This document shows, one piece after another, positions 7,011-56,534 of a DNA stretch of 64,000 nucleotides. The stretch is from NCBI GenBank assembly GCA_963575745.1, contig CAUYUJ010000026.1, forward strand, positions 62,001-126,000, given 5' to 3'. The position numbers were made by a program, and so were the translations under genes. This DNA comes from Prorocentrum cordatum (Eukaryota). The notes beneath the pieces are model-generated. The model did no database searches, was not told where the DNA came from, and saw only the letters and a list, made by a program, of their open reading frames with translations. The stretch's first letter is position 1. The number at the start of each line of letters is the position of its first letter.

Positions 7011-7113
7011 TTTTTTCCCAACCATCCTGTGGTGTTGGGTCCTCGTTTTGAAGAGACAGCGCCCCGCGTCCCACCTCCTCCTCCTCCTCTCTCCTCCCCC
7101 TCCTCCCTCCTCC

Positions 7114-7159
<46 letters not shown>

Positions 7160-7217
7160 GTCATCATCATCATCATCATCATCATCGTCATTGTCATCGT
7201 CGTCATCGTCATCGTCA

Positions 7218-8095: not shown

Positions 8096-8132
8096 CGCAG
8101 TCCGGGACGCAAGGTCCCAGTGCGGGTCCCGG

Positions 8133-10351: not shown

Positions 10352-10618
10352 TTAACTGCCGGCCCTCGCCAATCCGAGCTACCCCCTATAGACGCCCAGC
10401 TGAGCGTGTTCATGGACGATATCACGAAGAGCACAGTTATTGAGGAGGGGGCATCAGCGGCTAAGGTCACAGACGTTCTGAACGGTAGCGCATCTAGATT
10501 AGAGAGCTGCCTGGCCAATGGGCAGTGGACGCTCAACCCTGCTAAGGCGAATCATCTGCTTGATCCGCAGGGGGGGGGGGGGGGCGACGCTATCAGACAG
10601 CGCGCCGATTGAGACGAT
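10352..10618 (+). pseudogene. LINE RT catalytic segment (FMDD) between two insertions
   Basis: LTAGPRQSELPPIDAQLSVFMDDITK...WTLNPAK. It is in frame with the 5445 ORF once 7011-10351 is removed. Confidence 0.8.
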
Positions 10619-10619
10619 A

Positions 10620-12165
10620 AATTAGCATGGCGAAGGACCCAACCATATGCAGTTGAGAGTACCGCAATTGTGAATATCTTCTTCGGTGGCGCTCCCTATG
10701 GGGCCACGAGCCGTATGAGGGGTGTGCCGAAATGCGTGGCAGTGTACACAACACGAACGAAGACGATAGGTCCGAATATGAAAGCTTGAGCGCGTGCGAG
10801 TCGGATCGCGAGCGAGTCTGATTATGAATGAATCTGCGCGCGATTGATTCTATTCGCATGAATGCGTGCATGGATACGCCCAGTGTAAATGTATGTATAC
10901 GACTGTGAACAGTTTGGGTCTGCGTGACTCTCGGTACTCGTGACTCTGAGCGTCGCCTCTGCAGGGGGCTTCCCTGGGAACCCCGACGGCAGCGCCCGCG
11001 CGCCGCGACGCCCATGTCGGCACGCCACACACCTGGTGTGCGGGACGCATGCGGACGGCAGCACTGGGGCCTTCGGTGGAGCTCCCTGTGGGGCCACGAA
11101 ACGTGTGAGGGGTGTGCCGAAATGGGTGTGCGGGGCGCATGCGGACGGCAGCCATGGGGCCTTCGGTGGAGCTCCCTATGGGGCCACGAAGCGTGTGAGG
11201 GGTGTGCCGAAATGGGTGTGCGGGACGCATGGACGTGGGGCAGCACTGTGTGAGGGGTGTGCCCGGTTGGGGCCTTCGGTGGAGCTCCCTATGGGGCCAC
11301 GAAACGTGTGAGGGGTGTGCCGAAATGGGTGTGCGGGACGCATGCGGACGGCAGCCATGGGGCCTTCGGTGGAGCTCCCTATGGGGCCACGAAACGTGTG
11401 AGGGGTGTGCCGAAATGGGTGTGCGGGACGCATGCGGACGGCAGCACTGGGGCCTTCGGTGGAGCTCCCTGTGGGGCCACGAAACGTGTGAGGGGTGTGC
11501 CGAAATGGGTGTGCGGGACGCATGCGGACGGCAGCCATGGGGCCTTCGGTGGAGCTCCCTGTGGGGCCACGAAACGTGTGAGGGGTGTGCCGAAATGGGT
11601 GTGCGGGACGCATGCGGACGGCAGCACTGGGGCCTTCGGTGGAGCTCCCTGTGGGGCCACGAAACGTGTGAGGGGTGTGCCGAAATGGGTGTGCGGGACG
11701 CATGCGGACGGCAGCCATGGGGCCTTCGGTGGAGCTCCCTATGGGGCCACGAAACGTGTGAGGGGTGTGCCGAAATGGGTGTGCGGGGCGCATGCGGGCG
11801 GCAGCCATGGGGCCTTCGGTGGAGCTCCCTATGGGGCCACGAAACGTGTGAGGGGTGTGCCGAAATGGGTGTGCGGGACGCATGCGGACGGCAGCGCTGG
11901 GGCCTTCGGTGGAGCTCCCTGTGGGGCCACGAAACGTGTGAGGGGCGTGCCGAAATTGGTGTGCGGGGCGCATGCGGGCGGCAGCCATGGGGCCTTCGGT
12001 GGAGCTCCCTATGGGGCTACGAATCGTGTGAGGGGTGTGCCGAGAGCAGAGGCAAGGAGGGGGAGGAGGGAGGAGGGCGAGGAGAGGAGGAGGAGGAGAG
12101 GAGGTGGGACGCGGGGCGCTGTCTCTTCAAAACGAGGACCCAACACCACAGGATGGTTGGAAAAA
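10620..12165 (-). mobile_element. Helitron2/Helentron-like non-autonomous element, family 1 copy B
   Basis: Same termini as copy A, reverse-complemented (AATTAGCATGGCGAAGGACCCAACCAT...GGATGGTTGGAAAAA). 10620-11030 is the inverse of 9940-10352. 90-bp array; AA/TT insertion context. Confidence 0.8.
11035..12042 (-). repeat. 90-bp tandem array, ~11 units (inverse of 7218-8095)
   Basis: GGGGCCTTCGGTGGAGCTCCCT recurs at a 90-bp period, with one aberrant unit near 11230-11270. Confidence 0.95.
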
Positions 12166-14113: not shown

Positions 14114-16149
14114 TTGTAAGGCGTAGGCACAGCCAGGTCGTGATAGAAATTGCTCACGACCCGAGGCGACAGCAGATACCCAGGAGTTTGGCAGCAGGTG
14201 GCAGCGAGCATGCGACGAAACTCTTGCAGCAGGTAAGAGAATATCGCAGCGAGCTACGCACTTTACTTCAGTTTGACAGTCTTAGACATGATGCCGCCTC
14301 TGGCGGCAACGGCGCGCCTCCATAGAGAGGTAGCAGGCGCCTGAGCTATAGGGGGGAGACGGCTCAGGCCCAGGGCATCCCCTAGCTGAGCTAGGGATGG
14401 CCCTGGGCCTCCACGGCCGCCCTCCTTTTTCATGCCCCGAGGGATCTTCCCCGCCGACGGGGCATCGTGCGCGGTCCTTGCGCCGCCGCGTCGCCTCTTG
14501 CCGCGGCGGCCTGCTGAACCTGCAGGCGGCCCAGCCTCCATATGTAACGGAGGGGCTACCGATCAGTTGAGAGATGACAGACTGATGGCCCCCGACTGAG
14601 CACCACCACCACCACCACCACCACCTCCTCCTCCTCCTCCTCTTTCTCCTCCTCCTCCTCCTCCTCCTCCTCCTCCTCTTTCTCCTCCTCCTCTTCCTCC
14701 TCTTTCTCTTTCCTCCTCCTCCTCCTCTTCCTCTCCTCCTCCTCCTCCTCTTCCCGTCCTCCTCCTCCTCCTCCACCTCCTGCTCCTCCTCCTCCTCCTC
14801 CTCCTCCTCCTCGTCCTCCTCCTCCTCTCTTATTTGACACCTCTCGCCGACGAGCTCTCAGGGGGACTATTTGGGCCGCCTTGGGGCTTTCGTGGGCTCC
14901 TGTGCGGTAGTCCCGGGGGTCCCCTGGGGCCCTGTTCGGTGGTCTTGGGGCCCTCTTGGGCCGTCTTGGGTACATTTTGGCTGCCTGGGGGGTCTCTTGG
15001 GGCCGTCGTGGAGTCATTTTCGGACATTATTGGGCCCGGTTAGGCCGTCTTGGGTCCCCTCGGATGCCCTCTTGGGCCAGCTGGGGACTTTCTTGGGGCT
15101 GTCCTGGGCCGTCTACGGGCCCTATTGTGACGAGCGAACAACACACACCGATACCCACAGGAGCGTCGGAAGGAGGAGGACTGGCCATGGGTATGGGTGC
15201 GGGTTGTCGGCCCCTGGGGGAAGCTCCCGTTCGAGCGGGGACCCCCATCCGACAACACGCGCCCATAGCCCCCTCCGCCCCCCCTATGGGTATGGGTGCG
15301 TGTTGTTCGATCGTCATATTGTGGCTCTCAGTGAGCTTCTGTGGGCCTTTGAAGACCGCAAGTGGGCCAATCTTTGACCGAAGGGCGTAGAAAACGGAAA
15401 ATATTCAGCAAACAAAAGGACATCAGCAATTCTGGCTTCTCGAAGGCCTCCTGGAAAGCGTCTTTGGGGTGTCTCAGGCCTGTTGGTGTCCTCTTGGGGC
15501 ATATTGGGCGCTTCTCAGTGGCCGTTGGGTGCGTCTTGACGCGATGCTGAACCACCTTGGCGGCCTTGGTGGTCTTCCTGGGCCGTCTTGAAAGACTCGG
15601 AGTGCCTTGGAGAGCCCCAGGGAGGCGAGGGGCCGCCCAGGAAACCTCGGGAGATGGGGCCCATGCGCGCAGGTGGACGTGGGGAGAGGGGGGGATGGGC
15701 CCCGCAGAAGACCAACCGGAACTCTGCCCTGCAGCTCTCGGCATGCTACCATGCCTCGACGTGCCAGGGGGAGAGGTGGCGGGTTTTGGCGTCGCCTTCG
15801 CTCGCTGTGTGTCTTGGAAAGCTCTGATCCCGTCGATTGCCCGCATGGTTCCAGCGGCAGCCGAACGCGCTGCAAGTGCGGACAACGGGCGAGAGACGAC
15901 GGACGGCGGACGACGGACAAGGCAGATGGACGACCGACGAAAAAACACGGACGCAACGACGACGACGACGACGGACGACGACCACGACGACGACGGTTGA
16001 CGACGGACGACGGACGACGGACGACGGACGACGGACGATGGACGACGGAGGAGGGACGACGGTCCACGGCGACGACGACGGACGACGACCACGGACGACG
16101 GACGACGACGGACGACGGCCGACAAGCACGACGGACGCGACGATTCGAG

Positions 16150-16226: not shown

Positions 16227-17175
16227 GCGGCCACCCCCTGCTCTTTCAGCGGAGATGGTCTTGGCTTGCGCCGCGGCTCGAAGGAGGGTTTCGAGGCAGT
16301 AAAGCTGCACGACCATGTCATGTCGGAGCTCCGCGCAGAGCTCCGACAGTTGATGCTCCTGCCGCTTTTTTTCGGCGGCGGGCCCAGGGGGGAAGAGATA
16401 AGGGGCGGGCCTTCTCAGCAGGCTCGGAGGTCCCCATGCCTTCTGAGATGTTTTCTAAGCCTTCCCTGAAAACACTAAAACAACTTCTCATAAGACCGGA
16501 GGGTTTCTGAGAAGCCCGCCGCGTCCTGAGAGGGCCTTCTCCTTCTTACTTTTACTTCCCCCCTAGCTCGCCGCCGAGTTTGTTTTGCTCTTCTTAGGCC
16601 TCTGGGAGGCCCCTGCGCCGCCGCGGCGGGGGGTTCCTTTTTGAGTTCGGGCCCGGGCGCGCCCATGGAACTGGCCCAGGGGCCGATTTCTGAGCCCCTC
16701 CGATTGGCTGCGCGCAGAGTGACGGGGGTAGGGGGAGGGGGGAAAGGCTTCGTAGAAGGAGGCCGCTTCTTAGAAGGCGCCTGCCCCTACATCTACAGAC
16801 AAGGCCCGCACCTTCCTTCTAAGAGGCAGGGGTGCTTCTAAGAAGCCTTCCCCCCCCCTCCCGCTACCCCCCTCTGCGCGCCGCCGATCCGAACCCAGAC
16901 CCCATGGCCTCGTGACAAAAACACGACGGACGGGCCTTTAACATTTTCTAGGGTTCTGGAGGCCCTCATATTGGACCCTAGAAGGGGCTGTCTCGCACGG
17001 CTCGGAGGGAGCAGGGCGGCTCCAGGGACGTCTCGAGACCCATGGGGGGGGGGCGGTCCTCGCAAACGGAGGTTCCCCGCGGATCTTTCTGGGGTCGGCG
17101 CCGGAAGCCCCTCATCACACCACAGGCGGCGCCTTGTGTCGTCGGCGCCTCCAGCGCGCGGATCACTCTTTGTGA

Positions 17176-18020: not shown

Positions 18021-20015
18021 AAATTGTTCACTGCGTGGAGCTCCCCATATGTGCATCTATTCGCATGGACCTGTCCGCCGTGAATGTCTAGGCGCAAGAG
18101 CTTTCGAATATAAACGGGCTTCAGTTGTGACGGTCTGGTCATGAATCTAACTGAGGATGAATTGGAGTATGAATGAGCCTCAGTAGTACGAGCGCGTCTC
18201 TGCGCATGAGCCTGGGTCCTCCTGGGGCCTCCTGGGGCCTCCTGAAACCTACTGGGGCTTCCTGGGGCCTCCAGGAGCTTCTTGGGGCCTCCTGGGGCCT
18301 CCTGGGACCTCCTAGGGAGGATTCGTGCCCCACGAGAGGCTCAATCTATAGGAATATACGTACGTAAAATATTGCGGATTGGAGCCACAGGAGAAGGGGG
18401 CAATCTATAGGAACACGCGTAAAACACCAAGGACTCGTGCCCCAGGAGAGGCCCTATAGGAACATAAGTATTCAGGAGAAGGACAATCTATATAAACATA
18501 CGTATAACATCAAGGATTCGTGCTTCAGGTGAGGCCCAATCTATAGGAGCATACGTAAAACAAATGGGATTGGAGCCACTCCTGTTGCCTTCTGAGGCCT
18601 CCTGCTCCTGGGGCCTCTCGGGGCCTCCTGTTGCCTTCCGAGACCTCCTGGCGCTTCCTCTGGCCTCCTGGGGCCTCCTGTGGCTTCCTGAAGCCTCCCG
18701 GAGCTTCCTGGGGCCTCCTAGAGCCTCTTGGGACATCCTGTGGCCTCTTGAGTCTTTCTGTGGCCTCCTGGTGCCTCCTGGGACCTCATGTGGTCTCCTG
18801 GGGCCTCTTAGAGCCTGTTGGAGCCTCTTGTGGCATCCTGGCGAGAATCTGTGCCAACGAGTCTGGCCACCGATCAAGACATCCTCAAAATCTGGTCCAC
18901 CTGGGGGGTGAAAATGGGCGCCTCGCTCGAGACATCCTCCAATCTGCTCCGAAAGCGAAGGATGATGGGACAGAAAATAGTCAAACCGCTTGAGGCATCC
19001 CCACAAAACGGCCGCGAACGGGACCGTGAGATAACCCTTGGCGGCTCCCCTTAGGGGGGTGAAAGTGAGCGCCTCGCTCGAGACATCCTCCTTTTCTGCT
19101 CCGACAGCAAAGGATGTTGGGACAGAAAACAGGCAAACCGATTGAGGCATCCCCACAAATCGGCCGCGAACGGGACCGTGAGATATCCCCTGGCGGCTCC
19201 CCTTAGGGGGGTGAAAATGAGCGCCTCGCTCGAGACATCCTCCAAATCTGCTCCGAAAGCGAAGGATGTTGGGACAGAAAACAGGCAAACCGCTTGAGAC
19301 ATTCCCACAAAATGGCCGCGAACGGGAACGTGAGATAACCCCTGGCTCCTCCCCTTAGGGGGGTGAAAGTGAGCGCCTCGCTCGAGACATCCTCCTTTTC
19401 TGCTCCGACAGCAAATGATGTTGGGACAGAAAACAGGCAAACCGATTGAGGCATCCCCACAAATCGGCCGCGAACGGGACCGTGAGATAACCTCTCGGCG
19501 GCTCCCCTTAGGGGGGTGAAAATGAGCGCCTCGCTCGAGACATCCTCCACATATGCTCCGAAAGCAAAGGATGTTGGGACAGAAAACAGTCAAACCGCTT
19601 GAGACATCCCCACAAAACGGCCGCGAACGGGAACGTGAGATAACCCCTGGCTGCTCCCCTTAGGGGGTGCAAATGGGCGCCTCGCTCGAGACGTCCTCCA
19701 AATCTGCTCCGAAAGCGAAGGATTTGGGACAGAAAACAGGCAAACCGCTTGAGGTATCCCCACAAAACGGCAGCGAACGGGGCGCGCGTGAGTCTCAGCA
19801 TGAGTAAGTCTGAGTAGGAGTAGGTCTGAGTATGAGTAGGTCTGAGTATGAGTAGTTTGGTGTGTGAGAGTAAGTCTGGGTATGAGTAAGTCTGAGTGTG
19901 AGTCAGTCTGTGTATGAGTAAGTCTGGGTATGAGGAGGAGAGGGGAGGAGAAAGAGAAGGAGGAGAAGTCGGCGGCGTCCAAGAAATAAGAAGAACCATA
20001 TTAGGATATGGGGAA
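18021..20015 (-). mobile_element. Helitron2/Helentron-like element, family 2 (copy D) with 152-bp array
   Basis: On the - strand: 5' TTCCCCATAT... and subterminal ATATGGGGA-GCTCCACGCAGTGAACAATTT. Same terminal architecture as family 1 but different sequence. Contains a 10-bp (TGAGTAAGTC)n tract and a 152-bp array. Confidence 0.6.
18890..19785. repeat. 152/153-bp tandem array, ~6 units
   Basis: CCCTTAGGGGG recurs at ~19048, 19200, 19352, 19505 and 19657; two unit variants alternate in part of the array. Confidence 0.95.
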
Positions 20016-21258
20016 TTAGCCTGGCGAAGGACACAACCATATGCAGCTGTGAGTACCGCAGTTGTGAATATCGTCCTCGGTGGAGCTCCGTATGGGGCCA
20101 CGAACTGCGTGAGGGGCCTGCCACAGTGGTGGTGGTGGTGGGGAACCGCATGCGGGCACCCCTGCTGGGGCCTGCGGTGGAGCTCCCTATGGGGCCACGA
20201 AGCGCTGCCCTGGGTGGGGGAACCGCATGCGGGCACCCCCACTGGGGCCTACGGTGGAGCTCCCTGTGGGGCCACGAAACGTTGCCCTGGGTGGGGGAAC
20301 CGCATGCGGGCACCCCCGCTGGGGCCTAAGGTGGGGCTTCCTATGGGGCCACGAAGCGCTGCCCTGGGTGGGGGAACCGCATGCGGGCACCCCCACTGGG
20401 GCCTTCGGTGGAGCTCCCTATGGGGCCACGAAGCGCTGCCCTGGGTGGGGGAACCGCATGCGGGCACCCCCACTGGGGCCTACGGTGGAGCATGGTGGAG
20501 CTCCACTGGGGCCTTCGGTGGAGCTCCCTATTGCTACGAAACGCTGCCCTGGGTGGGGGAACCGCATGCGGCACCCCCACTGGGGCCTTCGGTGGAGCTC
20601 CCTATGTGGCCACGAAACCCTGCCTGGGTGGGGAACCGCAATGCGGGCACACCCACTGGGGCCCAACGGTGGAGCCCCCTAGGGGGCCACTAAGCGCTGC
20701 CCTGGGTGGGGAACCGCATGCGGGCACCCCCAACTGGGGCCTTTCGGTGGAGCTCCCTATGGGGGCCACGAAACGCTGCCCTGGTTGGGGAGACTCAATG
20801 TGAATCACACCCCCACTGGGGCCTTCGGTGGAGCTCCCTATGGGGCCTCGAACCGTGTGAGGGGTGTGACGACATGGGCGGTGGGGACGATGATGATGAC
20901 GATGATGATGAGGAGGATGTGGATGAGGATGATGCTGCATATGATGATGCTGATGGATGATGGGTGATGGTGATGATTGGTGACGATGGGGGGGAAGGGG
21001 GGTGATGAATGATGTGATGAATGATGATGATGATGAGATGAGATTGATGATGATGATGATGAGATGGGATGATGATGAATATGATGAAGGAATGATGATG
21101 ATGATGAGGATGATGATGATGATGATGGAGTGCGGAGAGCAAAGGCAAGGAGGGGGAGAGAGAGGGGCGGGGAGGAGGAAGGAAGGAGGAATGAGGTGGG
21201 ACGCGGGGCGCTGTCTCTTCAAAGCGAGGACCCAACACCACAGAATGGTTGGGAAAAA
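20014..21258 (-). mobile_element. Helitron2/Helentron-like non-autonomous element, family 1 copy C (77-bp array)
   Basis: AATTAGCCTGGCGAAGGACACAACCATATGC at 20014 and ...CCCAACACCACAGAATGGTTGGGAAAAA ending at 21258. (GAT)n microsatellite and 77-bp tandem units. Confidence 0.8.
20075..20870 (-). repeat. 77-bp tandem array sharing a ~35-bp core with the 90-bp array
   Basis: TGGGGCCT at 20166, 20243, 20320, 20397 and onward; core GGGGCCTTCGGTGGAGCTCCCTATGGGGCCACGAA. Confidence 0.9.
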
Positions 21259-23807: not shown

Positions 23808-24376
23808 CGTAGCGAGCGCTGGCCACCGCCTCGGCCTCCGCCCAGTGTTCTAAGTTTGCGGTGGGTCTGATGAGTTGCACTTGGACCGCAGTCTCCTCCG
23901 CACGTGCTTACTGAAAATAGGGTCAACGCCTCCGCCTCCGCGCAGTGTTCAAGGTTCGCGGTGGGTCTGATGAGCTGCACCTCGACCGCAGTCTCCTCCG
24001 CACGTGCTTCCTGAAAATAGCGAGCGCTCGGGCCACATTCGTCGGTCAACGCCTCCGCCTCCGCCCGGTGTTCAAAGTTGGCGGTGGGTCTGATGAGCTG
24101 CACTTCGACCGCAGTCTCCTCCGCACGTGCTTACTAAAAATAGCGAGCGCTCACGCCACATTCGTCGGTCAGCGCCTTCGCCTCCGCCCAGTGTTCAAAG
24201 TTTGCGGTGGGTCTGATGAGCTGCACTTGGACCGCAGTCTCCTCCGCACGTGCTTACTAGAAATAGCGAGCGCTCGCTCCACATTCGTCGGTCAACGCCT
24301 CCGCCTCCGCGCAGTGTTCAAGGTTGGCGGTGGGTCTGATGAGTTGCGCTTCGACCGCAGTCTCCTCCGCGCGTGC
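23808..24376. repeat. 123-bp tandem array (~4.7 units)
   Basis: GTGGGTCTGATGAG at 23861, 23961, 24084, 24207 and 24330; one unit has a 23-bp deletion. Confidence 0.95.
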
Positions 24377-24735
24377 CAACTTTGTGAGTTTGGGGGATGG
24401 GGAGTGTCCACTAGTTGTTTCCCTTAGCCGCCGCACGGTTTTTGGACTTGGGTCGTTCTTCGAGGAAGTCTCGGGCATTTTGGGCCTCCGAGGTCCCAAA
24501 ACCGTGCAGTCACGGACCGTGCGGCGAGGTTGCTGGCCATTCGGAGGTCACCGCAAGGCCTGTCACTACACTGCTTTGTGACCCCCAAGCCGCTCACTCC
24601 TACGGGCTCTCGAGGCGTGTGCCCAGACGCTGTGACTCCTGGCCGCGGCGACGCCACCAGGCTCGAGCGCAAGCGCGTGGCGGTTGTACACGTGCAGGCC
24701 CGTGCCCTTCCTGCCCGCAGGGCTCGCCAGACGAC

Positions 24736-25795
24736 ATGGACCTGGACTCCTCGCCGCAGCCGCTGCGGACGCGCGCCGAGTGCCCGCTGGGCCACCGACT
24801 GAAGCACTTCCTCGCCGGCAAGGGCACCCACACGTGCGACGGGTGTGCGGACGGGCAGCCCAAGCCCGACGGCTCCAGCATGTGGGGGTGCCGCGCGTGC
24901 GACTTCGACGTCTGCTGCGCCTGCCAGGAGCAGCTGGCGAGCCAGCACGCGTGGCGCACGCCCTCCGGGCGCGGCCGCGCAAGCCCCGAGCCTGGGCAGC
25001 TGGGGCGCGCCATGGAGGGCACCTGCGGCGGCAGCGGCCGCCTCGGCAGCGGGCGCCCCCCCGCCACGCCAGCGGCGTCGCAGCGGCCCTCCCTGGCCCT
25101 GACGGCCTCGGCGGCGCCCGATCGCGAGGGCCGCAGCCCGCAGGGCACACCGGCCGGCGACTCGTCGCGGGCGCCCGTCGGGCCGCACCACGCCGCCTGG
25201 AGCCGGGCGGTGGACGTGGAGCAGGCCCTGACGGGCTCGCTGCGGAACGTCCGCGAGCTCCACGGCCGCAGGCGGCAGGCTCTCCAGGAGGCGGCGCGCG
25301 GGGCGTGGGGCAGGGGGGCCCGCGACCTGGAGGCCGCCACGGAGAGGGGCGTGCTGGAGGAGGCGCGCCGGCAGAGCCGGGGGCTGGCCGCCGCCGAGCT
25401 GGGCGCGGCGGAGCTCGCCCAGCGCGCGCGGCAGAGCGAGCGCGGGGCCGCGCTGCGGGCGCTGGCGGCCAGCGAGCGGGCCGCGGAGGCGGTGCGGCTC
25501 GCGCGTGTGGCCGAGGCGGAGCAGTCGGCGCACATCGAGCGCCAGGCCCGCGAGGCGATCGCGTCCCTTCAGGGGCACGTGGAGGAGGCTCGCCGCGCCG
25601 CCGACCAGAGGCGCAGCTTTGCCCGGCAGCTGGAGGCGGAGGGCATGACCAGGGCCGCGAGGGATCTGGAGGTGGCCGAGGCGCGGGCGGCCAGGGCGGA
25701 GCGCGAGGCGGCCAGCGAGATGGCCGTCGCGGAGGTGGCCGCCGACCACCGCCTCGATGCGCTGTCCCACGCGCTGTCGGTGCTTGGTCGCTCAG
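24736..25795 (+). CDS. Nested gene exon 1: N-terminal Cys/His zinc-finger-like domain, then Ala/Glu/Arg coiled coil
   Basis: MDLDSS...CPLGHRL...CDGC...MWGCRACDFDVCCAC (C1/DC1/ZZ-like), then helical sequence with strong GC3 bias. Donor TCAG|GA at 25796. Start codon inferred. Confidence 0.7.
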
Positions 25796-26004
25796 GAGAT
25801 GTAGGCCTCCCAGATGGGGTCAGAGTAGACGGGGTCGGGGGATCGCGCCGCATCCTCGATGTATCGGCGATGCGCCTCGATGTGGGCCCCGAGTTTCTCC
25901 GAGCCGAAGTCGCCGACGCATCGCCGATACATCGGTGATGCATCGCCGGTGCGGCGCGATCCTCCGACGCCGTCTGCTCCAAGCCCATCCGGGAGGCCCC
26001 TGAG
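25796..26004 (+). mobile_element. Introner-like 209-bp GA-AG intron made almost entirely of a palindromic MITE
   Basis: Imperfect ~50-bp TIRs bounding 25804-25998; AGGAG direct repeat at both junctions; second, inverted copy at 55935-56131. Confidence 0.7.
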
Positions 26005-27899
26005 GAGCAGAGCAGTCCGAGGGGAGCCCGCAGGAGCTCCGGCAGGCAGGCACGTCGCGCCTCGCGGCCGAGGCGAGTGCAGGTGTCCAGGCAGAGGTGA
26101 GGGCTGCAGTGAGGCTGCGCGAGGGTGTCGTGTCCGAGATACAGGCCGAGGTCGCCGATGCAGAAGCTTCCCGGAAAGCTGCGCTTGCTCGGGTAGCTGC
26201 TGCCGAGTCAGCTCAGGCCGAGGAGGTCGAGTCTTCACGTCGCTTTGAGCTGGAAGTCAGGAGCAGGAGTGCGATACTCTTGGCCTCGGAGATGGCCCAA
26301 GCTAGGGAGGAAGTCAGCGCGCTCGTGGCTCATAAGGAGCAGCTGGGGGAGAATGCTGCTAACACCTTGCATGCGGCTGCAGAGTCAATCAAAGAAATAG
26401 AGGCGTCAACTTCTGAATTAATTCACGAGGCGAGTGAGCGCGAGGAAGCGGCCAGTGTTCGGCTTGCTGCGCTCTTAGCATACAGGCAAGAGGAGATGGA
26501 GATGTTCGAGGCCAGCATAATAGCTGAAGACCAGGCGGGGCTTGCGGAACAGGAGGAGGCCGAGGAGTCAGAGATTCAAAGGTTCTCGCATATAGAGAGC
26601 CGTTCCGAAGAAGCGGAGAGAGTGCATGTTGAAGAGGTCACCGAGATGGAAGCGGCCAAGACGTGCGCCCTTGCTGCAGCAAGCGAACGCGCCGTGACCG
26701 CGTCGCAGTGGAGAGCATCAGTATTGGCATCCATTCGCTTGGATCGTCGCCGCTCGCTCCAACCACTGGAGGCCATTGCTGAGGCCCAGGCTGCAGAGGC
26801 TTCACGGCTGGAGGCGGAGGCAGAGCTGGCCAGCGACCGTGCGGCAGCGTCGAAGAGGAACGCAGAGCTGGCCATCAGGGATCTTCGGAGCCAAACTGCT
26901 CAGCACGTTCGAGCATGCATCTTGCGTGGGGCCGCGATCAAGCGAACCATGGACGAGATTGCAGACCAAACCTCCGCAGCTGCAGCTGAGGCCGCGGAGG
27001 AGGTGGCGTCCACGAAACTGAACGCCATAGTTTCAGTTGAGGCTGAAGAGCAGATCTGCGCTCGACGGGTGCAATCAGCGGAAGCTCGTGTGGCGGCTGC
27101 CACGAGGGCGGCGACGTCATGTGAAAGCAGCATGGAGGTAGCTCTGCTTGCGGCTGAGGAGAAGATCACATCCATCCGAGAAGAGGCTGAAGAATCGGAA
27201 AAGCAGGTGCAGGATTCTCTGGACCAGGAGCTGCTGGCGGCTCGAACGCGCTTGGCAGCAGCTGAGACAGAGGAGGCGGCCAGCATGGATGCTGTGCGTG
27301 CAGAGGTGGCTCACCAGCAGGCCGCTCATGCTGCCTCCATGGACCAGCTCGAGGCTGTGCTCGCCGAGACAGCGGCCGCCGACCAGCGTGCGCAGATTTG
27401 GAACCGGGAAGCCGATGCAGAGAGAGCAGCTGCTGCCCAGGTCGAGGCCGACAGCGAGCGCGCCGCTGCGCGCCTGGCAGCGCGACTGGCTTCCCTGCGC
27501 GCTGCCAGCGAGGAAGAGGTGAGCGCCGCGCTTGCCCTGGCGGACCGCCAGGTGCGAGCGGCGGAGGACAGGGCCCGGGCAGCGGAGCGCGAGGAGGCGG
27601 CCAGCGTGGCTCGCACTCGGGAGCTCGAGAGTGCCGCGGCGGCGGCCGAGGAGGCCGGCGCTCGGCGGGTGGAGGCCCTGGAGGAGGGCGCGGAGGCCGA
27701 GGTGCGCGCCTGGCGGGCGCGCTACGAGGAGGCCGAGCAGGCTCTGGCGGCGTCCCTGGCGCAGTCGATGGGCCACGAGCGGGTCTCCGCCTGCATCTTC
27801 GGGCGGGCGCGGGCGGCGCCCGGCGCCGCGGCCCTGGGCCCCTCGCAGCCGCAGACGCCGGCCTCGCAGCCCCGGACCCCGGGTGCCGCAGGCTCGTGA
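26005..27899 (+). CDS. Nested gene exon 2: long Ala/Glu-rich coiled-coil protein (984 aa spliced total)
   Basis: Open from 26004 to the TGA at 27899. Acceptor CCTGAG|G; removing 25796-26004 joins it in frame to exon 1 (GRSG|AEQSE). Confidence 0.75.
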
Positions 27900-28625
27900 G
27901 GCGTGGCGGGGGGCGAGTGCCGCCTTTTTTCCTGCGCGAGCCGCGGGCACTCTCGGTGCAAAGGCAGGGGCGGCACCGCAGACTGATCGCAGCCGTGCAG
28001 CAGCTCGCTATGCTGGCTGGTGTACCTTATGGGCTCTCGCGCGAGCGGCAGGACACCGCACAACACCGCCCACCAAACCACCCCAACCCAACCCGAAGGC
28101 CTCAATGTGCCTTCCATTTCCAGTGGGGGGGGCGGGGAACATGGAGAAAACAGATGGAACCCGTACCCCCCCCCACTCCGAAATTGGGGTCAAATGGGGG
28201 TCTTCGGGTTGGGTTGGGGTGGGCTGGTAGGACGCCGCACATGCCGCCTCCCCGCTTGGAGGCGGCGCCCTCTTGGCAGCCGCAGGCGGGCCGCGGCTGC
28301 GGGAGGCGGCCGGAGGGGACGGGCAACCCAGGCAGGATCAGCACGGAGGCGGTTCCCCGCGTCTGGTGAGGAGCCGGGCCTTCGAGTGGGGGGGTGGGCT
28401 AGCAGGCAGTGGGGTTCAGCGCACACGGGGCTCGGCCCGCGCGCCGGATCCTGCGCAGCCAGATTTCGGCCGAGCTGGATTTGGGAGACGCTCGCGGCCC
28501 CAGGGGTCGTCTCACATCTTGGCTGAGCTGGGCTTGGGGATCCCCCCCAGAATTGCAGCGCAGTTTTTCTGAATTGGTCGAGCCAGGTTTGCGCTGAACC
28601 GGGTTAGTCCACGCCCGAGAGGGGC

Positions 28626-28808
28626 CGGCGGCGAGCGAGAAGGAGAAGGCCTTCTCAGAAGGCTCGGAAGTCCCCCGGCCTTCTGAGAAGTTTTCTTATC
28701 CTTCACCAGAGACAGAAGAAAGCTTCTCAGAAGGCGCGAGGGCTTCTGAGAAGTCCCGCCACCTGAGAAGGCCTTCTCCTTCTTATTCCCCCTCTTCGCT
28801 CGCCGCCG
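28626..28808. mobile_element. ~190-210 bp MITE family (TIR CGGCGGCGAGCGAG); other copies at 16372-16577, 31184-31390, 33617-33819, 53766-53974, 54731-54933
   Basis: Terminal CGGCGGCGAGCGA / TCGCTCGCCGCCG with internal CTTCTCAGAAG/CTTCTGAGAAG quasi-palindromes; six recognisable copies in both orientations. Confidence 0.8.
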
Positions 28809-31800
28809 AAGGGAAACCCCGAAGCAAGACTGTCCCCCTTTTCAAAAGTGATGCAACTCGTCCTGCCCCCCAGAGCCCCCAGGGAGACCACTGGAGCGCC
28901 CAGAACGTCGGAAACCGTTCACAAACGACCGAGGACCTCCAACAGACCCCAGACATCCGCCGATGTCATTTTGTCAACCCGCGGCCCCAGAGGTCTCGAC
29001 CCCTTCCCCAGGGGTGTTTTTTCGTCCCGGGTCCATCTTTGATGGTCCCCGGGCTCGATAACGGGCCCCGGAGGCCGAAAACCAGGAGAAACCGCCGGAC
29101 GGAAAAGATCATCTCGTCGGATCTCTGGGTGACGGGTGTGATCAGTGACCAGTGGGGTGGGGAAGGGGGGGGGGCCGATCGGGGGCCGTTCACGTCGCGG
29201 TTCGCGCCGGCGCGGTCCGAGAATGCCTTGGACTGGCCTGTTTCCAGGTGGTGCTGGCGCGAACCGCGACGTGGCCAGGGGGCCCGTGGGGGGGTGGGAG
29301 GGGAAGGAGGCAAGCTAGGTGCGGAAGCGCCTTATCTGACGTCCTGCCCCTCCCTCCCATCCCTTGCCATGGCGTTACATCCTTTCCCTCCCTCCCATCC
29401 CTACCATCCGACTGGCGAACAGAGAGGAGATCTACGCCATTAGCGTAGATCTCTCTGTTCGCGCAGTCGGATGTCGTAGCATGGCGTAGCATTACGTGGG
29501 GGGGGAGTGCGGGTGGAGGGGGGGGCGGGGAGGGCGCGCTCCTGCAGCCCGCCCCCCAGGGGCTTTCAGAGGACGGGTCCGTGCACCACGGCACCCGTCC
29601 ACCACGGCCACCCTGGGCCCCCAGGACGGTGCTTAGACTTCTGGCGGGCTGCGCTTTTCCCCAACGGCGCTTCGCTCGAGGGTTCTGTTAAAGGCAGAGA
29701 CACCACAGAAGAGTCCAACAGAGGGCTCGGGGAGTCCGAGACCGCCCAGACGGGCAGCCGTCCGGCGGCCGAGCGGCAGACGTTTCACTTGAGTCTTCCT
29801 CGCAAAGTATCCAGGTGCTCTCGCCTCAGTGCCAGCTACCAGCTACATGTTTGGTGCGGACAGCCCCGACCCTTGTCAAACACACACGAAGGTGCACATG
29901 GCCGAATCTGGACCTCCCACTCCTCGACCCGCCTCTCCACCCTCGCTGCTATTGATGGGTGCCCTGCCGGGGTGACTCTGTCTCCCGACTCGGGCGCTCT
30001 GTTCCTTCGGCCTCCTGGGGTCCAGGGGGGGTGGGGCGCTCTCGGGCCCCCGGGGGCGCCAGCCCCAGGGATGAGGTCGAGGCCTCTTCCCGAAGGTCCG
30101 GCTGTGCGCAGGCCTTCCCGGCCTTGGCTGGAAGGGCGCGCGCGCCGTGCTTCGGTAGCAAAGCATGGGAGCCCTCGTAATTAGTTTTTGTTGTTGGGGG
30201 GGGGCATTGTATGTACATGCACATAAATATTTGTATACATATATATATATATGTATATATATACATATATATGTACATACATACACATATATATATGTTC
30301 ATATATATATGTATTCATAGAACCATTCGCGTCGATCAATGCCTGGTAGTCGATGAGTTCGCGTCGATTTGCAGCCAACCCGCATGGTGAGGATGATCGG
30401 TTTTCCAAGGTTGCCCTTGCATCCTTGCCCTTCGGCCCATCCTTGGCCGCTTTCGCTGGCCGCGCCCCGCTCGCGAAGTGTCGGCACGGCCTTTCAAGGC
30501 CCTTGCATCCGTATCGCGCGTCCTGATTATACGGGTTGACTGCAGCGTCGATTAGCGTCGATGCAGCGTCGATTTGGCGTCGGCTAGCGTCGACTCGCAG
30601 GAGGCAGCAAGAGGGTATGGGAGGCACCCGTGAGTTTTGAAGATGAAGAACGGCACACGCCTGCACTCTCGACGCTCCGCGCGGACTTCTTGGATCTGCT
30701 CTGGCCCCCCTGGCGGTGCCCGTGGCGGCGCCTCCGGCGCAGGCCCTGGCGCGCCGCGCGCCAGGGAGGGGGGCCCAGCGCGGATCCCAGAAATATCCGC
30801 GCGGACCGTCGAAGTTTGTGTGTTATGCCGTTCTCTCTTCTTTTCGAGTTGCCACAGGAAGAAAGATATCCGCCGCTCTCAGCCACATCGGCCAGGGGGG
30901 GAAGCAACACACCGGCAAAGGCACTCGTCGATTCCCAAGAGAAGATGGGAGAATATGGGAAGTGGGGGGGAAGACGAAAGTTGAGAAAATATAGGAAACT
31001 ATAAGGGATCCTGGGCCCAGGGCTGTTCGGGGGTTGCTAAGGGTGCCCCTGACCCAAGGTGCCCCTTGCTGTTCGGTCCATCTTGGACCCCTCGGGGCAC
31101 TCTGGGCAGCGTGATGGGGTGCTCTGGAGGCCATGGGGGCCTCCCTGGGAATCCTGGGGGCACCTTGAGCCAGGGGCACTTCTATCGGCGGCGAGCGAGG
31201 TGGGAAGCGAGAAGGGGTGGGCCTTCTCAGAAGTCTCGGAAGTCCCCCGGCCGTCTGAGAGGTGCTCTGAGCCTTCCCCGAAGACAGGCCGACGCTTCTC
31301 GCCAGAAGGCGCGGGGGCTTCTGAGAAGCCCCGCCGCCCTTTGCGAGGGCCTTCTCCCTCTCACTGTTCCGCCCCTCGCCCGCCGCCGATTTCAGCAGCA
31401 CCCGGGCCGAGCCACAGCACCGTGCCAGGGCCCGCGGATGGCAGGGCGTCGAAGCGGCGCTCGGGCGCGCCCGCCCCGCGGCAGGCTGCGCGGCACGGGC
31501 CGCCTCTGGCGGGCGCCGCGGCGCCGTGGGCGCGCGGCACGGCCGTTGGCGGCGCGCGGCTCCTCGGAAGCCGCGGCGGTGACGTACTGGCGGTGACGAA
31601 CAGCACACTCACACACACACACACACAGGAGGGTCCAAGGTAGGAGGAGTGGCTACCCAGAGATCCGAAGATCTGTTTTTTTCAATCCGGCGGTTCCTCC
31701 TGGATTTCGGCCTCCGGAGCTCATTAACGGGCCCGGCGACCATCAAAAATGGATCCGGGACGAAAAACCAGCCCCGTGGGATGGGTCGGGGCCTCTGGGG

Positions 31801-32299: not shown

Positions 32300-33226
32300 A
32301 CATACATATATATAAATATGTATGTATTTGTGCATACAACTTACATATGTGTGCATGCATGCATGCATAGATGCATGCACACATACATACATGCTTGCAT
32401 TCAAACATACATACCTACACGCGTACACATACACACATGCATGCATGTATGCGTACATACACACAATCATACACATACACACAACCATAAACGTACATAC
32501 ATACATACATACATGCATGCATACATACATACAAACATACATGTATACACATACATACATACATGCATGCATACATATACACATACATACATACATACAT
32601 GCATGCATGCACGCATACACACATACATACATACATACATCCACACACACACACACACATCAATACATACACATACATACATACACATCTACACACTTCC
32701 ATACTTTCATACATACATACAGCATACATACATACATACATACATACATACATACATACATACATACATACGTACGTACATACATACATACATACATACA
32801 TACATACACACATACATACATACATTTATACATACATACATACATTTATACATACATACACACATACATGCAAACACATACATACACACATCCATACATA
32901 CATACACGCATACGTACATACGTACATACATTTATGCACACATGCATCCACATATACACGCATACATACATGCATGCATGCATGCATGCATGTATACACA
33001 CATACACACGTACACATATGCACAAACAATCATACATACATACATACATACATACATACATGCATGCATGCATGCATGCATGCATACATACATACATACA
33101 TACATACAGACATCCACACCCACACACACATACTTACATCCAATCATCCATCCATCTCTACATGCATGTATGCATACATCCATACAGACATACATGCACA
33201 TATGCTTATACATATATGTATATATG

Positions 33227-33268: not shown

Positions 33269-35387
33269 TATCCTTTAGTTTTTGCAAGCCGGGGTGGGTG
33301 GGGACCCCCCCCCCGCTCCCCTCCCAAATTGGACTCCAACTGGGCCCCCCCAGACATCCTTGCCAAAGGTCCCCCAGCTCGTCCGGGACCTCCCAGGGCG
33401 CTTAGCCGGGTCCTTCCAGCAGGCCCCATGCGATCAGAGCGGTGATCAGAGAGGCCGAAGAGAGACCCAAGACAGCACAAGAGCGCTCCAAGAAGGACCC
33501 AGATGGCCTCCAGAGGCCACCTAGACAGCCCAGGAGGCCCTCAACAGGGCTCCCAGAATGCAGAAATCCCTTCATTCCCTGAGAAAGCCGTGCATTTCCA
33601 GCACATACATTTGTGGTCGGCGGCGAGCGAGAGGGGAACAGTGAGCAGGAAAAGGCCTTCTCAGAAGGCGGCGGGCCTTCTCAGAAGCCCCCGCGCCTTC
33701 TGAGAAGTGCCTTCTGCGTCTTCGGGGAAGGCTTAGAAAACTTCTCAGAAGGCCGGGGGACTTCCGAGCCTTCTGAGAAGGTCTTCTCCTTCTCACCGTC
33801 CACCCCTCTCTCGCCGCCGTCGATTGTTCCGTCGAACGTACAGCAGATACGTAGACTGTTTGTAAATCCTACGAAACATCTATGTATTTGTCGCAGAGCC
33901 GGCGAACATTGCAATTGTTGGGTCAGTCATTTCTGTAGTCGATCTTTTACTCGAGGCGTGCGGGGGTCACGGTGTGCTCACGTCCTCGTCGGGGAGGAGT
34001 CCCGGACTGGCGGTTTGGGCTTGCATGCGGGGGGCGCGCGGAGCAGAAAAGAGCTGCCCTACTCGTCGTCGCCGCTGCCGTCGTCAGCGCTGCTGCTGCC
34101 GCCACCGGCGTCGTCGCCGCCGTCGGCGTCGCCGCCGTCGTCGTCGTCGTCGTCGTTCTCGTCGTCGTCGTCGTCGTCGTTCTCGTCGTCGTCGTCGTCC
34201 TCACCAGCGCAACGTTCGAAGGGGATGGGCTCAGGGGGGTAGCATGTACTACCCCTTGTCGCGCATTCATCGCTGATGGGGGCCCGATAGCCCACCCAGC
34301 CTGGTAATTGGCTGAGGAGGTTCGAACGGGCTTTTCGTTGAAATGATCTAATTATGGGGAAACTTCGAGGCCAATGCTTTTACAAAGTTCTACTTCAACG
34401 TTGCTAGGATTCGGAAGCTTGGAAACAGTTTGGATAAAGTTTGACGGCCAAGAATGTCCGAATATCCGTAGCGCGCGTGTGGTATTTTCGCGAACTCCCG
34501 AATGTGTGTTCGAACTGTTTCCGAACTTTGTCCAAACTTTCTTTGACCTTCTTCAGAATTTAGACACTTGGATCGAACTTTCCCTACACTTGTTCTTGAT
34601 CCTCTTCCAAACTCTGCTAAGATATTTTCCGCTTTTTTCGAACTCCCCCTGAAGGCTTGAACTTTTTTCGAGCTCTTCCTTTCCTTGGTTTCCGAACTCG
34701 AACTTCTGGCCCTCCCTCCGCCCGAGCTCATGGCCTGACTCTATCTCTCTCCAGGAAATCCTCCTTTTTCCCCCATCAGCCAGCTCCGAGCCCAGCCCAA
34801 GAACGTGCGCATTCGCTGTTGGCCGCCTGTCGCCGCGAGCCAGTCCCCGCCTGTCGTTGCCCCTCACGGACGCCCCCGAGCCCGAGCCGTGACAGAAATC
34901 ACGACGGGAGGCGTTCGGCCATTTTCGGCCTCCTCATGACGCCAACATCGCAGAGCGGATTCCGTTCGGAAAGCAATTTCGTTTCGGATTTCGAAGTGAC
35001 TTTCGTGTGGACTTCTTTGGCCAGGAATGAAGACTATCAAACATCCCCGTGAGATTCACTTTGTTTTTCGCTTGCCGTTTCGGTGTTATGCGTTGACAGG
35101 AATCCGTTCAGAAATCCGCTGCAGCACGTCAGCAAGTTCGATGCAGTGAGCCTCTGGGGGCCCTCGCCCGGCACCGGGACCGTGCACACACGGTTCGGGG
35201 ACGGAACGCCGCCTCGGCCGCCGGGCCGCCGTCGCCGCCGCTGCCGCCGCCGTCGTCGTCGTCACCGTCGTCGCTGTCGTCGTCGTCGTCGTCGTCGTCG
35301 TTCTCGTCGTCGTGGTGCGTCGTGGTGTGTCGCGGCGGCGGCGGCCGGCGCCGGTGGCGCCAGGCGGCCCGCTGCCCCCCTGAGCAG

Positions 35388-54000: not shown

Positions 54001-55934
54001 GCGTGGGGGCGACCAGAGGGAGGGAAGACGGGTGCACCTTCCGGGCCCTGAAGGGCCCTCCGTGGGCCCCAAAGGGCCCCCCCTGCAGGGACCCGCGAGG
54101 GCCCCTCTTCCGCAGCCCTCGCTGCCCCTCGCCGAGGTCATCGCCCCCCCCCCTTGCGCGACGCCCGAGACGCGCCTTCGTGCCTCGCACCGGGCGGCAC
54201 CCGCGGGCCAGCCCCGAGGCCCCCCGTGGAGGGTTCATTTCTTTCCAGCAGGGGATCGCAGCCAGGCGAGGCAGCGCATCCTCCGGTCCGTATCCGAGCG
54301 ACGCTCGATCGGCGGGCAGCCGGCGCAGCGCGCCTCACTGGAGGCGAGGGCGCTGACGCGCGGATTCACGCGGGCAGCTTGCGCGCCAGTGTCGGGGACG
54401 ACGACCCCGACTTTTGGCGTCGCCCACCTGTCTGATGGGGAGGATGCAGCATGCCCGAACCGATGCAAACTGCCCGTGTCGCGGAATATTCCCTGCCGAG
54501 GGGGACGAGGATACGCATGGAGGCGAGGACCCCGTGGATGGGCGGAAGCGGAACGAGCGGCAGAAACATACACTTTCGACGGCCCGCGCGGCTCTCCTCG
54601 ATCGGCGCTGCACCTCCCCGCCGCCGGCTCGCGCAGCTCGCCCGGGGCGGCGCGGGGGGGGCACAGCGCAGATGCGAGGACGCCGCGCGGACCTTCGAAC
54701 CTGCAAGCTCTTGCAGTGTCTGCTTCTTGTTGGCGGCGAGCCCCGGGGGGGAGGCGAGGAGGGGCGGGCCTTCGCAGAGGGCTCGGCAGTCCCAGGGCCT
54801 CCCGAGAAGTTTTGCTGAGCCTTCCCCGAAGGCGCAGAACACATCCCGGAAGGCGCGAGGGCTTCTGAGCAGTCCCGCCGCCTTCCGAGAAGGCCTTCTC
54901 CTTCTCATTTCTCCCCCCCTCGCTCGCCACCGATTGGTGGAACTTGCGGCCCTCGGCAGGGCCGTCCTGGCGAGTCCACCCACCGGCGGGGGCCGGCGAA
55001 GCGGGGGCAGGGCTGGGCAATCGCCATGTGTGAAGGGGAACTGGGACACACAAGTAAATCCACGCAAATAAAAAGATTCCCCGTATTTTCCCATATTTTC
55101 TGGGTTTCTGTCTTCCCCCCCACTGTCCATATTTTCTAATATTTTCTGGGGAATCGAGAATTCATTGTGTCTGTGTGTTTTTTCCCCTCCTGAAGATTGA
55201 CATGATACTCTTTAGCGAAACGCTCCTCAGTGAAACCTTGCAGGGGCACCCCCCATGCGTGCACGGCACCGCGTTCAGAGTGCACCCCCCCGGGCGGGGT
55301 GGTTCATCGACGTCCGATAACTTCCGAATGTATCTGGCGCGACGCGCATCGATCAGCGAAACCGACCGGGGACTACCCTGGAAAACACTCGGATGCAACT
55401 GTCGAATGCCGTTCTCGAAATGTCCGAGTCCCGGGAGGTGGGGCCCGCCGAGTCCAAAGTTCGGAGGCAACTCATGGGAGCCTCCCATACCATCTTGTCG
55501 GCTCTTGCGAATCAACGCTGGTCGACGCTATCTCATCGACTCCCAAACGCAAATCGACGCTAGTCGACTCTAAAGACGGAATTTTAGACGAGCGCGTTCC
55601 ACTACTCGCCAAGTGACTACTCGCAAATGGCCTGGATCTGCCGCGGGGGATCTACGATAAATTACATCGACGCAGACATGTGTTTCTCGGACGTTTGCGA
55701 GTAGTCGCTTTGCGAGTGATGGAACGAGCTCGGTGAAATTGAGAGGGTATGTCCAGCTCCCACGATTTGCTGCCGAACCAGTGACCCCCGCGGCCAGGGG
55801 CCACTGGGCCGCACTCGGCCCTCACGCAGGGCAGGCGCACCCGCACGCTGCCGAGCGCAGAGGGTGGGCTGGCAGCGGCGCGCGTGCTCCCGCCTCTGGG
55901 CCGGCGAGGCGCGGTGGGCGGACCCACGCGGCCA

Positions 55935-56131
55935 GAGGCCTCCTAGGTGGGGTCGGAGTAGCTGGGGTCGGAGGATCGCGCCGCATCGCCGATGCATCGG
56001 CGACGTCGGCGATGCTTCGGCGACGTCGGCATGAAGCAAGTCGGGCCCCACACCGAGCCAAATCGCCGATGCATCGACGGTGCGGCGCGACCCTCCGGCC
56101 CCGGCTGCTCCAACCTCCTCTGGGAGGCCTC
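55935..56131. mobile_element. MITE, inverted copy of the element at 25804-25998
   Basis: GAGGCCTCC...GGGGTCGGAGTAGCTGGGGTCGGAGGATCGCGCCGCA and its inverse at the other end; the interior matches the reverse complement of the intronic copy. Confidence 0.75.
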
Positions 56132-56534
56132 GAGCGGCGACGGGCCCCCGCCCGCTCGACGCGGGGCTTCGGCGGAGCGGCCCCGGCGACGCGCCGTCCG
56201 TCCGGCCTCGGCCGGCGCCCTGGGGAGGGGCGGGGAATCTGCCGCCCAGGAGTGCCTGGGCGGAGCGGGCGCCGGCACCGTGCCAGAGAGGCGAGCGGGT
56301 GGGGTGGGGGGCGGGGAGCTGGCCATCGCTCGGACGTCCATTCCCCGTGCTTTTTTCGGTCTCGTGCGTGGCTTTTCCGCCAGACGGTCGAGGATGCTCC
56401 TCGAAGGTCCTCGCCGAGAAAAAAATATGCACACGTCCGAGCGATGCCAGGGGAAGAGGCCGCTTTCGGCCTCGGCCCCTGGCGGCTCCCGCCCTGCTCT
56501 GCGGGAGCGAGGAAGGACACGAGCAGGAGAGCTC

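Follow-up and report, generated by a model that had tools for sequence, protein, structure and literature searches.

Foldback elements at AGGA-N repeats as probable GA-AG introns gained by transposition in a gene of Prorocentrum cordatum

A window of 64,000 nucleotides (nt) from the dinoflagellate Prorocentrum cordatum (GenBank assembly GCA_963575745.1, contig CAUYUJ010000026.1, positions 62,001 to 126,000 of the forward strand; all coordinates below are those of this window) contains an orphan gene for a coiled-coil-like protein, the assembled transcripts of which lack two segments, one of 209 nt inside the coding sequence and one of 179 nt in the 3' untranslated region (3'UTR). Both segments carry a foldback element with long terminal inverted repeats (TIRs), named element A and element B here, and both are bounded on either side by a copy of AGGA-N. 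We consider it likely that both elements are transposons of the miniature inverted-repeat transposable element (MITE) type, whose insertions at AGGA-N became GA-AG introns at once. Element A would then be a base-resolved example of a transposon insertion turned into an intron at once, in which the duplicated AGGAG supplies both splice sites and thereby makes the insertion invisible in the messenger RNA (mRNA).

The host gene and the skipped 209-nt segment

The window is GC-rich nuclear DNA, with a GC content of about 0.47-0.74 per 2-kb bin. The gene and the first of the two segments comprise the following features.

24736..25795, plus strand: coding sequence of exon 1, starting at the first ATG of the open frame and ending at the final base before the intron, based on the open reading frame (ORF), the fused frame and RNA contigs
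25794..25798, plus strand: left AGGAG direct repeat, read as target-site duplication; it would give the exon-end AG and the GA donor
25796..26004, plus strand: putative intron 1 (GA..AG register, 209 nt), missing from the assembled transcripts of three of four sequencing runs
25799..26002, no strand assigned: first copy of element A, foldback and MITE-like, 204 nt, without an ORF
26003..26007, plus strand: right AGGAG direct repeat; it would give the AG acceptor and the G after the acceptor
26005..27899, plus strand: coding sequence of exon 2, an ORF with its stop codon at 27897-27899 and a coiled-coil-like product

The original prediction, made from the sequence of the window, held that two long ORFs in different frames fuse once 209 nt are removed. 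The ORFs in question (24415..25938, plus strand, coordinate class 1, and 26004..27899, plus strand, class 0) do differ in frame, and a scripted join of 24736..25795 with 26005..27899 yielded one frame of 984 codons followed by a single terminal stop. Intron 1 would be of phase 1, interrupting a Gly codon after its first base. The exact fusion is not independent evidence for splicing, because excision of a transposon together with one copy of its target duplication automatically restores the frame that existed before the insertion.

Both exons have the composition of coding sequence. The GC contents at the first, second and third codon positions are 0.80, 0.63 and 0.95 in exon 1, a strong codon periodicity, and 0.75, 0.54 and 0.69 in exon 2, where periodicity is clear. 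Across element A the coordinate class of lowest GC moves from coordinate mod 3 = 2 to mod 3 = 1, matching the 2-nt change of frame that is expected. The frame of exon 2 is free of internal stops over 631 codons, as compared to 8-16 stops in each of the remaining five frames. The two exons of this one gene show a contrast in third-position GC, with 0.95 for 24736-25795 and 0.69 for 26005-27896.

In the product of exon 1, an N-terminus rich in Cys precedes a coiled-coil-like stretch rich in Ala and Glu. Relatives of the exon 2 protein were found neither among 8000 scored candidates nor in a library of 1.84 billion proteins, and a lenient Pfam scan of both exons gave nothing significant (C1_2 with E = 0.31 and LAIKA with E = 0.21 were both disregarded). 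No paralogue of the gene could be found within the 64-kb window, and none of these searches brought an empty site to light. The host gene is an orphan.

The segment that is removed was also predicted to be nearly all TIR-bounded palindrome with AGGAG at both junctions, and this is borne out. Copy 1 of element A has TIR arms of 69 nt (25804-25872 and 25930-25998) that are 81% complementary, ends with the terminal palindrome AGGCCT(CC), and has 11-nt TCGCCGATGCA-like repeats in its centre. As RNA, positions 25786-26014 fold at -162.5 kcal/mol (z = -12.8), none of 200 shuffled sequences being equally stable, with the whole element in one hairpin. AGGAG is present at 25794-25798 and 26003-26007. 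Element A has the traits by which MITEs are recognized, i.e. a small size (copies of 204 and 201 nt), TIRs and no coding frame of its own. Target-site duplications of 5 bp are known for a few DNA-transposon superfamilies; this was used for no superfamily assignment of element A. A transposase-encoding partner was sought with Pfam among the 146 window ORFs of at least 180 residues and no transposase family was detected, which carries little weight in such a small window.

Four sequencing runs, named X6, X1, X3 and X24 and taken from runs that contain the gene and bear marine labels, were aligned to positions 24400-30200 (5.8 kb). X6 is polyA RNA-Seq, X1 is of a type guessed as RNA and X3 is without a recorded type; these runs come from three studies, of 2014, 2020 and 2025. 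Retention of the segment in transcripts, or joints elsewhere, had been named beforehand as the outcome that would speak against an intron. Instead, the contigs of X6, X1 and X3 (three of the four runs) skip exactly 209 nt by a joint from 25793 to 26003, which can slide over 5 nt equal to AGGAG, and no other junction at this site is listed in the contigs of the runs examined. Removal from mature RNA, as expected of an Introner (an element that creates introns), is seen in the contigs of three of four runs, one of which is a polyA RNA-Seq library. The contigs with the skip measure 2118 nt in X6 (depth 44.2), 2079 nt in X1 and 1763 nt in X3, with 4, 0 and 7 differences from the window, respectively. 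The X1 contig, matching the window at 2079 of 2079 positions, thus derives from this locus or from an identical one. The Logan assembly presumably uses words of 31 letters, under which a 5-nt repeat cannot make a false join.

In X6 the bins 25758-25951 and 25952-26145 have depths of 8.21 and 32.6, equal to the exonic share of the single spliced contig (44.2 x 36/194 and 44.2 x 143/194), which implies that element A has zero coverage in the polyA library. The RNA contigs span 24662-25793 piecewise and are colinear with the window from 26003 to 28049. None of the three contig runs (X6, X1, X3) has coverage in six of the 30 bins (28862-29637 and 29832-30200), and since DNA libraries would cover these bins, X1 and X3 behave as RNA. 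The raw stranded reads of X24 have their first mates on the minus strand across the gene, which indicates plus-strand RNA, given the usual library type. Only 72 reads of X24 were aligned, 59 of them only partly on the stretch, at a depth below 3, which is too thin for a junction count.

The sliding joint of intron 1 allows six registers, of which only 25796-26004 (GA..AG) and 25799-26007 (AT..AG) end in AG, with none on the minus strand. The GA..AG register reads CAG/GA...AG/GA (a slash marks the border between exon and intron) and is the only one that fits dinoflagellate splice rules. The originally proposed register, 25796-26004, therefore agrees with the data, having an AG acceptor and AG/GA at both exon borders, and we infer that it is the register in use.

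Two other joints were considered and rejected. Inner GC..AG sites are present in the terminal palindromes (25805..25995, 191 nt); no such joint is listed, and the bases retained would put a TGA in frame. A joint from 27008 to 27635 (626 nt, TC..GC) has a shorter side of 21 nt in all three runs, occurs in other contigs, and was taken as partial similarity to other transcripts. In the same region, RNA depth is raised at 26548-26727 and 27493-27697 in all three contig runs, and the loose ends 'before' 26548 and 27493 are identical in X6, X1 and X3. These recurring ends suggest that other transcripts share short stretches with the coiled-coil gene, and the doubtful joint fits the same picture.

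The element A family and a second case in the 3'UTR

Two further features bear on the origin of intron 1, one being a second skipped segment in the same transcript and the other a second copy of element A.

28052..28230, plus strand: putative intron 2, 179 nt, GA..AG, in the 3'UTR, with the foldback of element B; joint in X1 and X3 contigs
55933..56133, no strand assigned: element A, copy 2, 201 nt, from the BLAST alignment, flanked by a 5-nt GCGGC repeat

Beyond the stop codon, a joint from 28049 to 28229 is present in X1 and X3 contigs; it skips 179 nt and slides over 5 nt. The skipped segment contains element B, which is unrelated to element A and has TIR arms of 64 nt (28069-28132 and 28168-28231) that are 75% complementary; its RNA fold reaches -118.9 kcal/mol (z = -7.8). 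Further copies of element B could not be identified within the window. The element is flanked by AGGAC (28050-28054 and 28229-28233), which lies in a 13-nt repeat, AGGAC[A/G]CCGCACA, with one mismatch (28050-28062 and 28229-28241). Loose ends of raw reads place the left border of the element B family near 28064, and the duplication at element B may be of about 10-13 bp rather than of 5 bp. The register 28052-28230 (GA..AG) is the sole one with an AG acceptor on either strand, and has the context CAG/GA...AG/GA. As the TIR extends into the ...TAG/G end, this acceptor may be part of the element itself.

The two introns are alike at their borders. In both, GA..AG is the only register that combines a G-initial donor with an AG acceptor, and both agree with the dinoflagellate U2-type consensus (donor G[T/C/A], AG acceptor, exonic G[A/C/T], exon-end AG; Roy et al., 10.1101/2020.10.14.339549). 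AG/GAG stands on both sides of element A and AG/GAC on both sides of element B, so that the splice sites appear to be recruited from the target duplications. Both of the clean joints in the 5.8 kb examined (two of two) are TIR hairpins bounded by AGGA-N. AGGH starts at 103 of 3572 positions (2.9%) of the transcript region and at 1.67% of the window positions, and AGGH flanking repeats were found at none of the other inverted repeats of the window (9940-11032, 15119-15325, 33618-33819 and 55589-55732).

Within the window, a BLAST search with element A aligned 25803-26002 to 56130-55933 (79.5% identity over 200 nt, E = 4e-46), giving two copies in all, of which copy 1 is the one skipped in transcript contigs. 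The similarity begins 7 nt inside the donor and ends 2 nt inside the acceptor of 25796-26004, which lies within the limits set for introner-like elements (ILEs), i.e. from 5 nt into the exon to 10 nt into the intron (Roy et al., 10.1101/2020.10.14.339549). Copy 2 is flanked by an exact 5-nt direct repeat, GCGGC (55928-55932 and 56134-56138). This repeat and the AGGAG of copy 1 are in the same register, 3-4 nt outside the AGGCCT palindrome, in two of two copies. Since 8.8% of random sites have, by chance, a 5-nt repeat that lies 0-6 nt from both ends, each repeat is weak evidence alone, and it is the common register in both copies that carries the argument for a 5-bp duplication. The length of the presumed duplication is constant (5 nt) in both family members. 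Together with the TIRs, these flanking repeats support an origin by transposition.

The flanks of copy 2 lack codon periodicity. With copy 2 in such non-periodic sequence and next to a repeat that is not splice-like, the family is not restricted to AGG insertion sites. It was also observed that the flanks of copy 2 (55901-55932 and 56134-56165) are complementary at 21 of 32 positions, versus 8 of 32 at copy 1; copy 2 may be nested in a further palindrome, or the family may descend from a longer element.

An alignment of the four arms (68 columns) shows 10 private changes in copy 1 (136 nt of arms) and 7 in copy 2, and 3 of the 68 columns separate left from right arms in both copies. This implies that the ancestor of element A was not a perfect palindrome and that the copies are not young. 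The frame downstream of copy 1 is open over 631 codons despite these changes in the arms, in favour of the proposed intron. The second, inverted copy that had been predicted at 55935-56131 does exist, with its centre inverted, but is to be placed at 55933-56133, and its outer arms favour the same orientation. The centre (25860-25942 compared with 55992-56074) aligns better when inverted (76.5% versus 60.4% in the same orientation), whereas for the outer arms the same orientation is slightly favoured (84% and 81% versus 79% and 77% when inverted). In this small sample, the loop of element A may have been flipped between the copies by recombination between the arms. Finally, metagenomes were scanned for 18 letters of the conserved arm, which gave at least 120 loci, and BLAST of both copies against these loci produced only seed-length matches of 19-50 nt, with no family member among the matches listed.

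Proposed origin of the introns and rival explanations

We propose the following mechanism. Element A would belong to the non-autonomous foldback DNA transposons (MITEs) and duplicate 5 bp of its target on insertion; one of its copies would have entered an AGGAG site within a coding exon of the orphan gene. The duplicated target would place AG/GAG on each side of the element, the left copy providing the exon-end AG and the GA donor, and the right copy the AG acceptor and the following G. The host spliceosome could then excise 25796-26004 as a GA-AG intron, as GT, GC and GA donors are all accepted by dinoflagellates, and excision would restore the reading frame exactly as it was before the insertion. 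The stem of element A, about 70 bp long, probably juxtaposes the two splice sites in the pre-mRNA. The same event would have been repeated in the 3'UTR, where an unrelated foldback element came to lie at an AGGAC site. With two events from unrelated families in one transcript, this genome would seem to convert MITE insertions into introns readily, and there may be a family with a 5-bp target-site duplication (TSD) in the register AGGHN in this very GC-rich species. The mechanism as such has already been published for dinoflagellates, and the value of the present case lies in confirmation and cataloguing.

Several points weigh against this proposal. The raw reads of X24 contain no junction reads and provide no read-level count of spliced versus retained molecules, X1 and X3 have no RNA record, and about 3.7 depth units in X1 bin 25758-25951 go beyond what the spliced contig explains. 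Transcript contigs alone cannot tell spliced RNA from an allele without the insertion. The family has just two copies in the window, the second of which has the non-splice-like GCGGC and lies in apparently non-coding DNA. In exon 2 the RNA contigs differ from the window by 2 synonymous and 6 non-synonymous changes, which give no sign of purifying selection. A search of the window for a spliced-leader 15-mer, with up to 2 mismatches, gave 0 matches, which is uninformative for a single window of 64 kb.

To these points is added the fact that introns of this type bear every hallmark of a template-switch artefact of reverse transcriptase (RT). Such 'falsitrons' are deletions in complementary DNA (cDNA) that are described as having direct repeats at their borders, a strong structure between these repeats and a donor other than GT (PMC10275267), and all three published hallmarks are found here, with repeats of 5 nt and with the hairpins of elements A and B at the folding energies given above. 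On this account the MITE would remain in the mature RNA of a disrupted or decaying gene, and RT would jump the hairpin between the AGGAG copies and likewise at element B; the lack of relatives of the host gene and the 2 synonymous and 6 non-synonymous variants in exon 2 would fit this account. Artefacts of this kind usually make up a minority of cDNA molecules, and their repeats need no particular sequence (PMC10275267), whereas here the skipped form is the sole assembled form in three libraries from 2014, 2020 and 2025, element A has no coverage in the polyA library, and both repeats carry the splice motif. Any repeat would serve RT, yet both hairpins are bounded by AGGA-N, the dinoflagellate exon-intron motif, although AGGH occupies such a small share of transcript positions. 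The downstream frame, moreover, is still open for its full 631 codons with clear periodicity. Since the falsitron hallmarks are shared by true TSD-derived introns, they do not discriminate, and we regard an RT jump as unlikely; evidence that is independent of RT is nevertheless needed, both for the present case and for the whole class.

It could also be supposed that the transcripts stem from an allele, a paralogue or strains that never received either element, and that the window shows a silent or disrupted copy. An empty site would indeed show such a precise absence from one duplication copy to the other, dinoflagellate genes often exist in several copies, and the differences of the X6 and X3 contigs from the window may point to other strains or copies. 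The identity of the X1 contig to the window over 2079 nt is at odds with this, as is the age of the element: with 10 private changes in 136 nt of arms, divergence would be expected in an empty copy as well. Two independent insertions, both missing in all three sources, would have to be assumed, the window holds no paralogue, and the AGGA-N borders of both elements would be left to coincidence. We therefore judge this explanation to be very unlikely.

Real cellular removal by a route other than ordinary splice-site recognition is to our minds barely credible. The foldback stem would direct cutting and rejoining at its base, as has been proposed for Amoebophrya, where splice dinucleotides vary and a distinct mechanism was suggested (PMC7789003). 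Both segments are long, near-perfect hairpins with their base 3-17 nt from the joints, in line with such a route. However, both joints fit AG/GA...AG/GA, neither case has borders that a spliceosome could not use, and the known dinoflagellate spliceosome, for which a U2 small nuclear RNA (snRNA) gene with a branch-point-binding sequence is present in the window, suffices. A broader version of the idea, which we hold to be highly improbable, is that the stem of 64-69 bp aligns the two duplication copies and the RNA is cut and rejoined at the base, palindromic MITEs being erased whatever the flanking repeat, and GA-AG being a mere by-product of the insertions that survived. If this were true, part of the dinoflagellate 'GA-donor' introns would represent a structurally guided excision system and not usual spliceosomal introns. 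Insertion of MITEs at AGGA-N sites, followed by spliceosomal removal, is the reading that we prefer.

Other features of the window and comparison with known systems

The remaining features of the window are as follows.

5268-8957, plus strand: open frame of 1230 codons, with a Ser run followed by tandem peptide repeats in the middle
9940-10354 and 10618-11032: large inverted repeat with arms of 415 nt, 98% complementary and 263 nt apart
16373-16577, 28637-28809, 31186-31389, 33618-33819, 53756-53974 and 54732-54933: six copies of a palindromic element of about 200 nt (family C), from sequence search
18903-19781: tandem array of 152-nt units (5.8 copies)
20140-20852: tandem array of 77-nt units
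23827-24376: tandem array of 100/123-nt units
32354-33195: (CATA)n tract of about 840 nt
46986-47157, plus strand: U2 snRNA gene, full length, with an intact GUAGUA branch-point-binding stretch and a score of 48 bits (gathering score 46)

Copies of family C are 77-86% identical to the copy at 33618-33819, with termini of the type TCGGCGGCGAGCG... and GGCCTTCTCAGAAGGC-type cores; a clear target duplication could not be read from the flanks of the six window copies. One copy follows closely on the downstream side of the host gene, in a region rich in loose read ends and in partial pieces of RNA contigs. On the other side of the gene, about 360 nt separate the end of the 123-nt array from the ATG. 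For the C-terminal 211 residues of the 5268-8957 frame, 19 relatives were found (E from 2.5e-82 to 4.4e-10); PIF1, AAA_19 or Helitron_like_N domains occur in several of these, and the product of the frame is probably a mobile-element helicase of the Helitron type or PIF1-like. Otherwise, only low-complexity or sub-threshold Pfam matches were obtained for the 146 ORFs mentioned above.

The features of elements A and B can be compared with several described systems. Dinoflagellate ILEs have inverted repeats (TIRs) and short duplications (Roy et al., 10.1101/2020.10.14.339549). In Polarella glacialis a 4-nt TSD, AGGH, gives both splice sites in classes 13 and 14, and class 12 has a 5-nt TSD of the form NAGGH or NNAGG (10.1101/2020.10.14.339549). 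The same authors report for dinoflagellates that GA donors are over-represented among recently gained introns, with the exon consensus AG/GH...AG/GH. Element A resembles these ILEs in being a genic non-autonomous TIR element with an AGGH duplication that would supply the donor GH and the acceptor AG and whose excision restores the exon; the GA donor matches that of young introns, and the context is AG/GH on both sides. As a small variation, the 5-nt duplication found here is in the register AGGHN, which is not among the registers in the preprint text. Two copies in one 64-kb window stand against more than 100 per class in Polarella glacialis, and the comparison is one of structure. Unlike class 14, which prefers GT donors, both cases here have GA.

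The Introners of Symbiodinium and S. microadriaticum likewise combine TIRs with a short TSD from which one or both splice sites are co-opted, in hosts that are dinoflagellates tolerating GA and GC donors (PMC9860276; 10.1101/2020.10.14.339549). The Symbiodinium Introners are described as having 4-bp duplications and a 3' splice site of their own where the element ends, whereas element A has both sites beyond its TIRs, within the duplication. Element B, with a TIR that runs into the ...TAG/G end, may conform to the Symbiodinium type. Introners have since been extended to many taxa (Gozashti et al. 2022, PMC9860276; a 2025 PNAS paper, PMC12130899).

Introns of Amoebophrya A25 and A120 have inverted repeats of 8-20 nt, direct repeats of 3-5 nt that overlap the borders, and variable dinucleotides (Farhat et al. 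2021, PMC7789003). The introner elements of Amoebophrya are comparable to elements A and B in the hairpin that joins the exon borders, in the direct repeats at these borders, and in being MITE-like without a transposase. The arms found here are longer (64-69 nt), and both cases fit GA-AG, whereas consistent border dinucleotides are absent in Amoebophrya, for which the source reports that U1 was not found (PMC7789003).

Introner elements have already been reported from Prorocentrum cordatum itself (Dougan et al., 10.1101/2022.07.25.501386), the genome of which has a GC content of 59.7% overall and 65.9% in genes, compared to roughly 47-74% per 2-kb bin in the window. In that work, introner elements were defined by a pattern search within 30 nt of the intron ends, and not by families. 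The elements described here share with them the inverted repeats and direct repeats of 3-5 nt, and are in keeping with the GA and GC donors that were allowed in the gene models of this species (10.1101/2022.07.25.501386).

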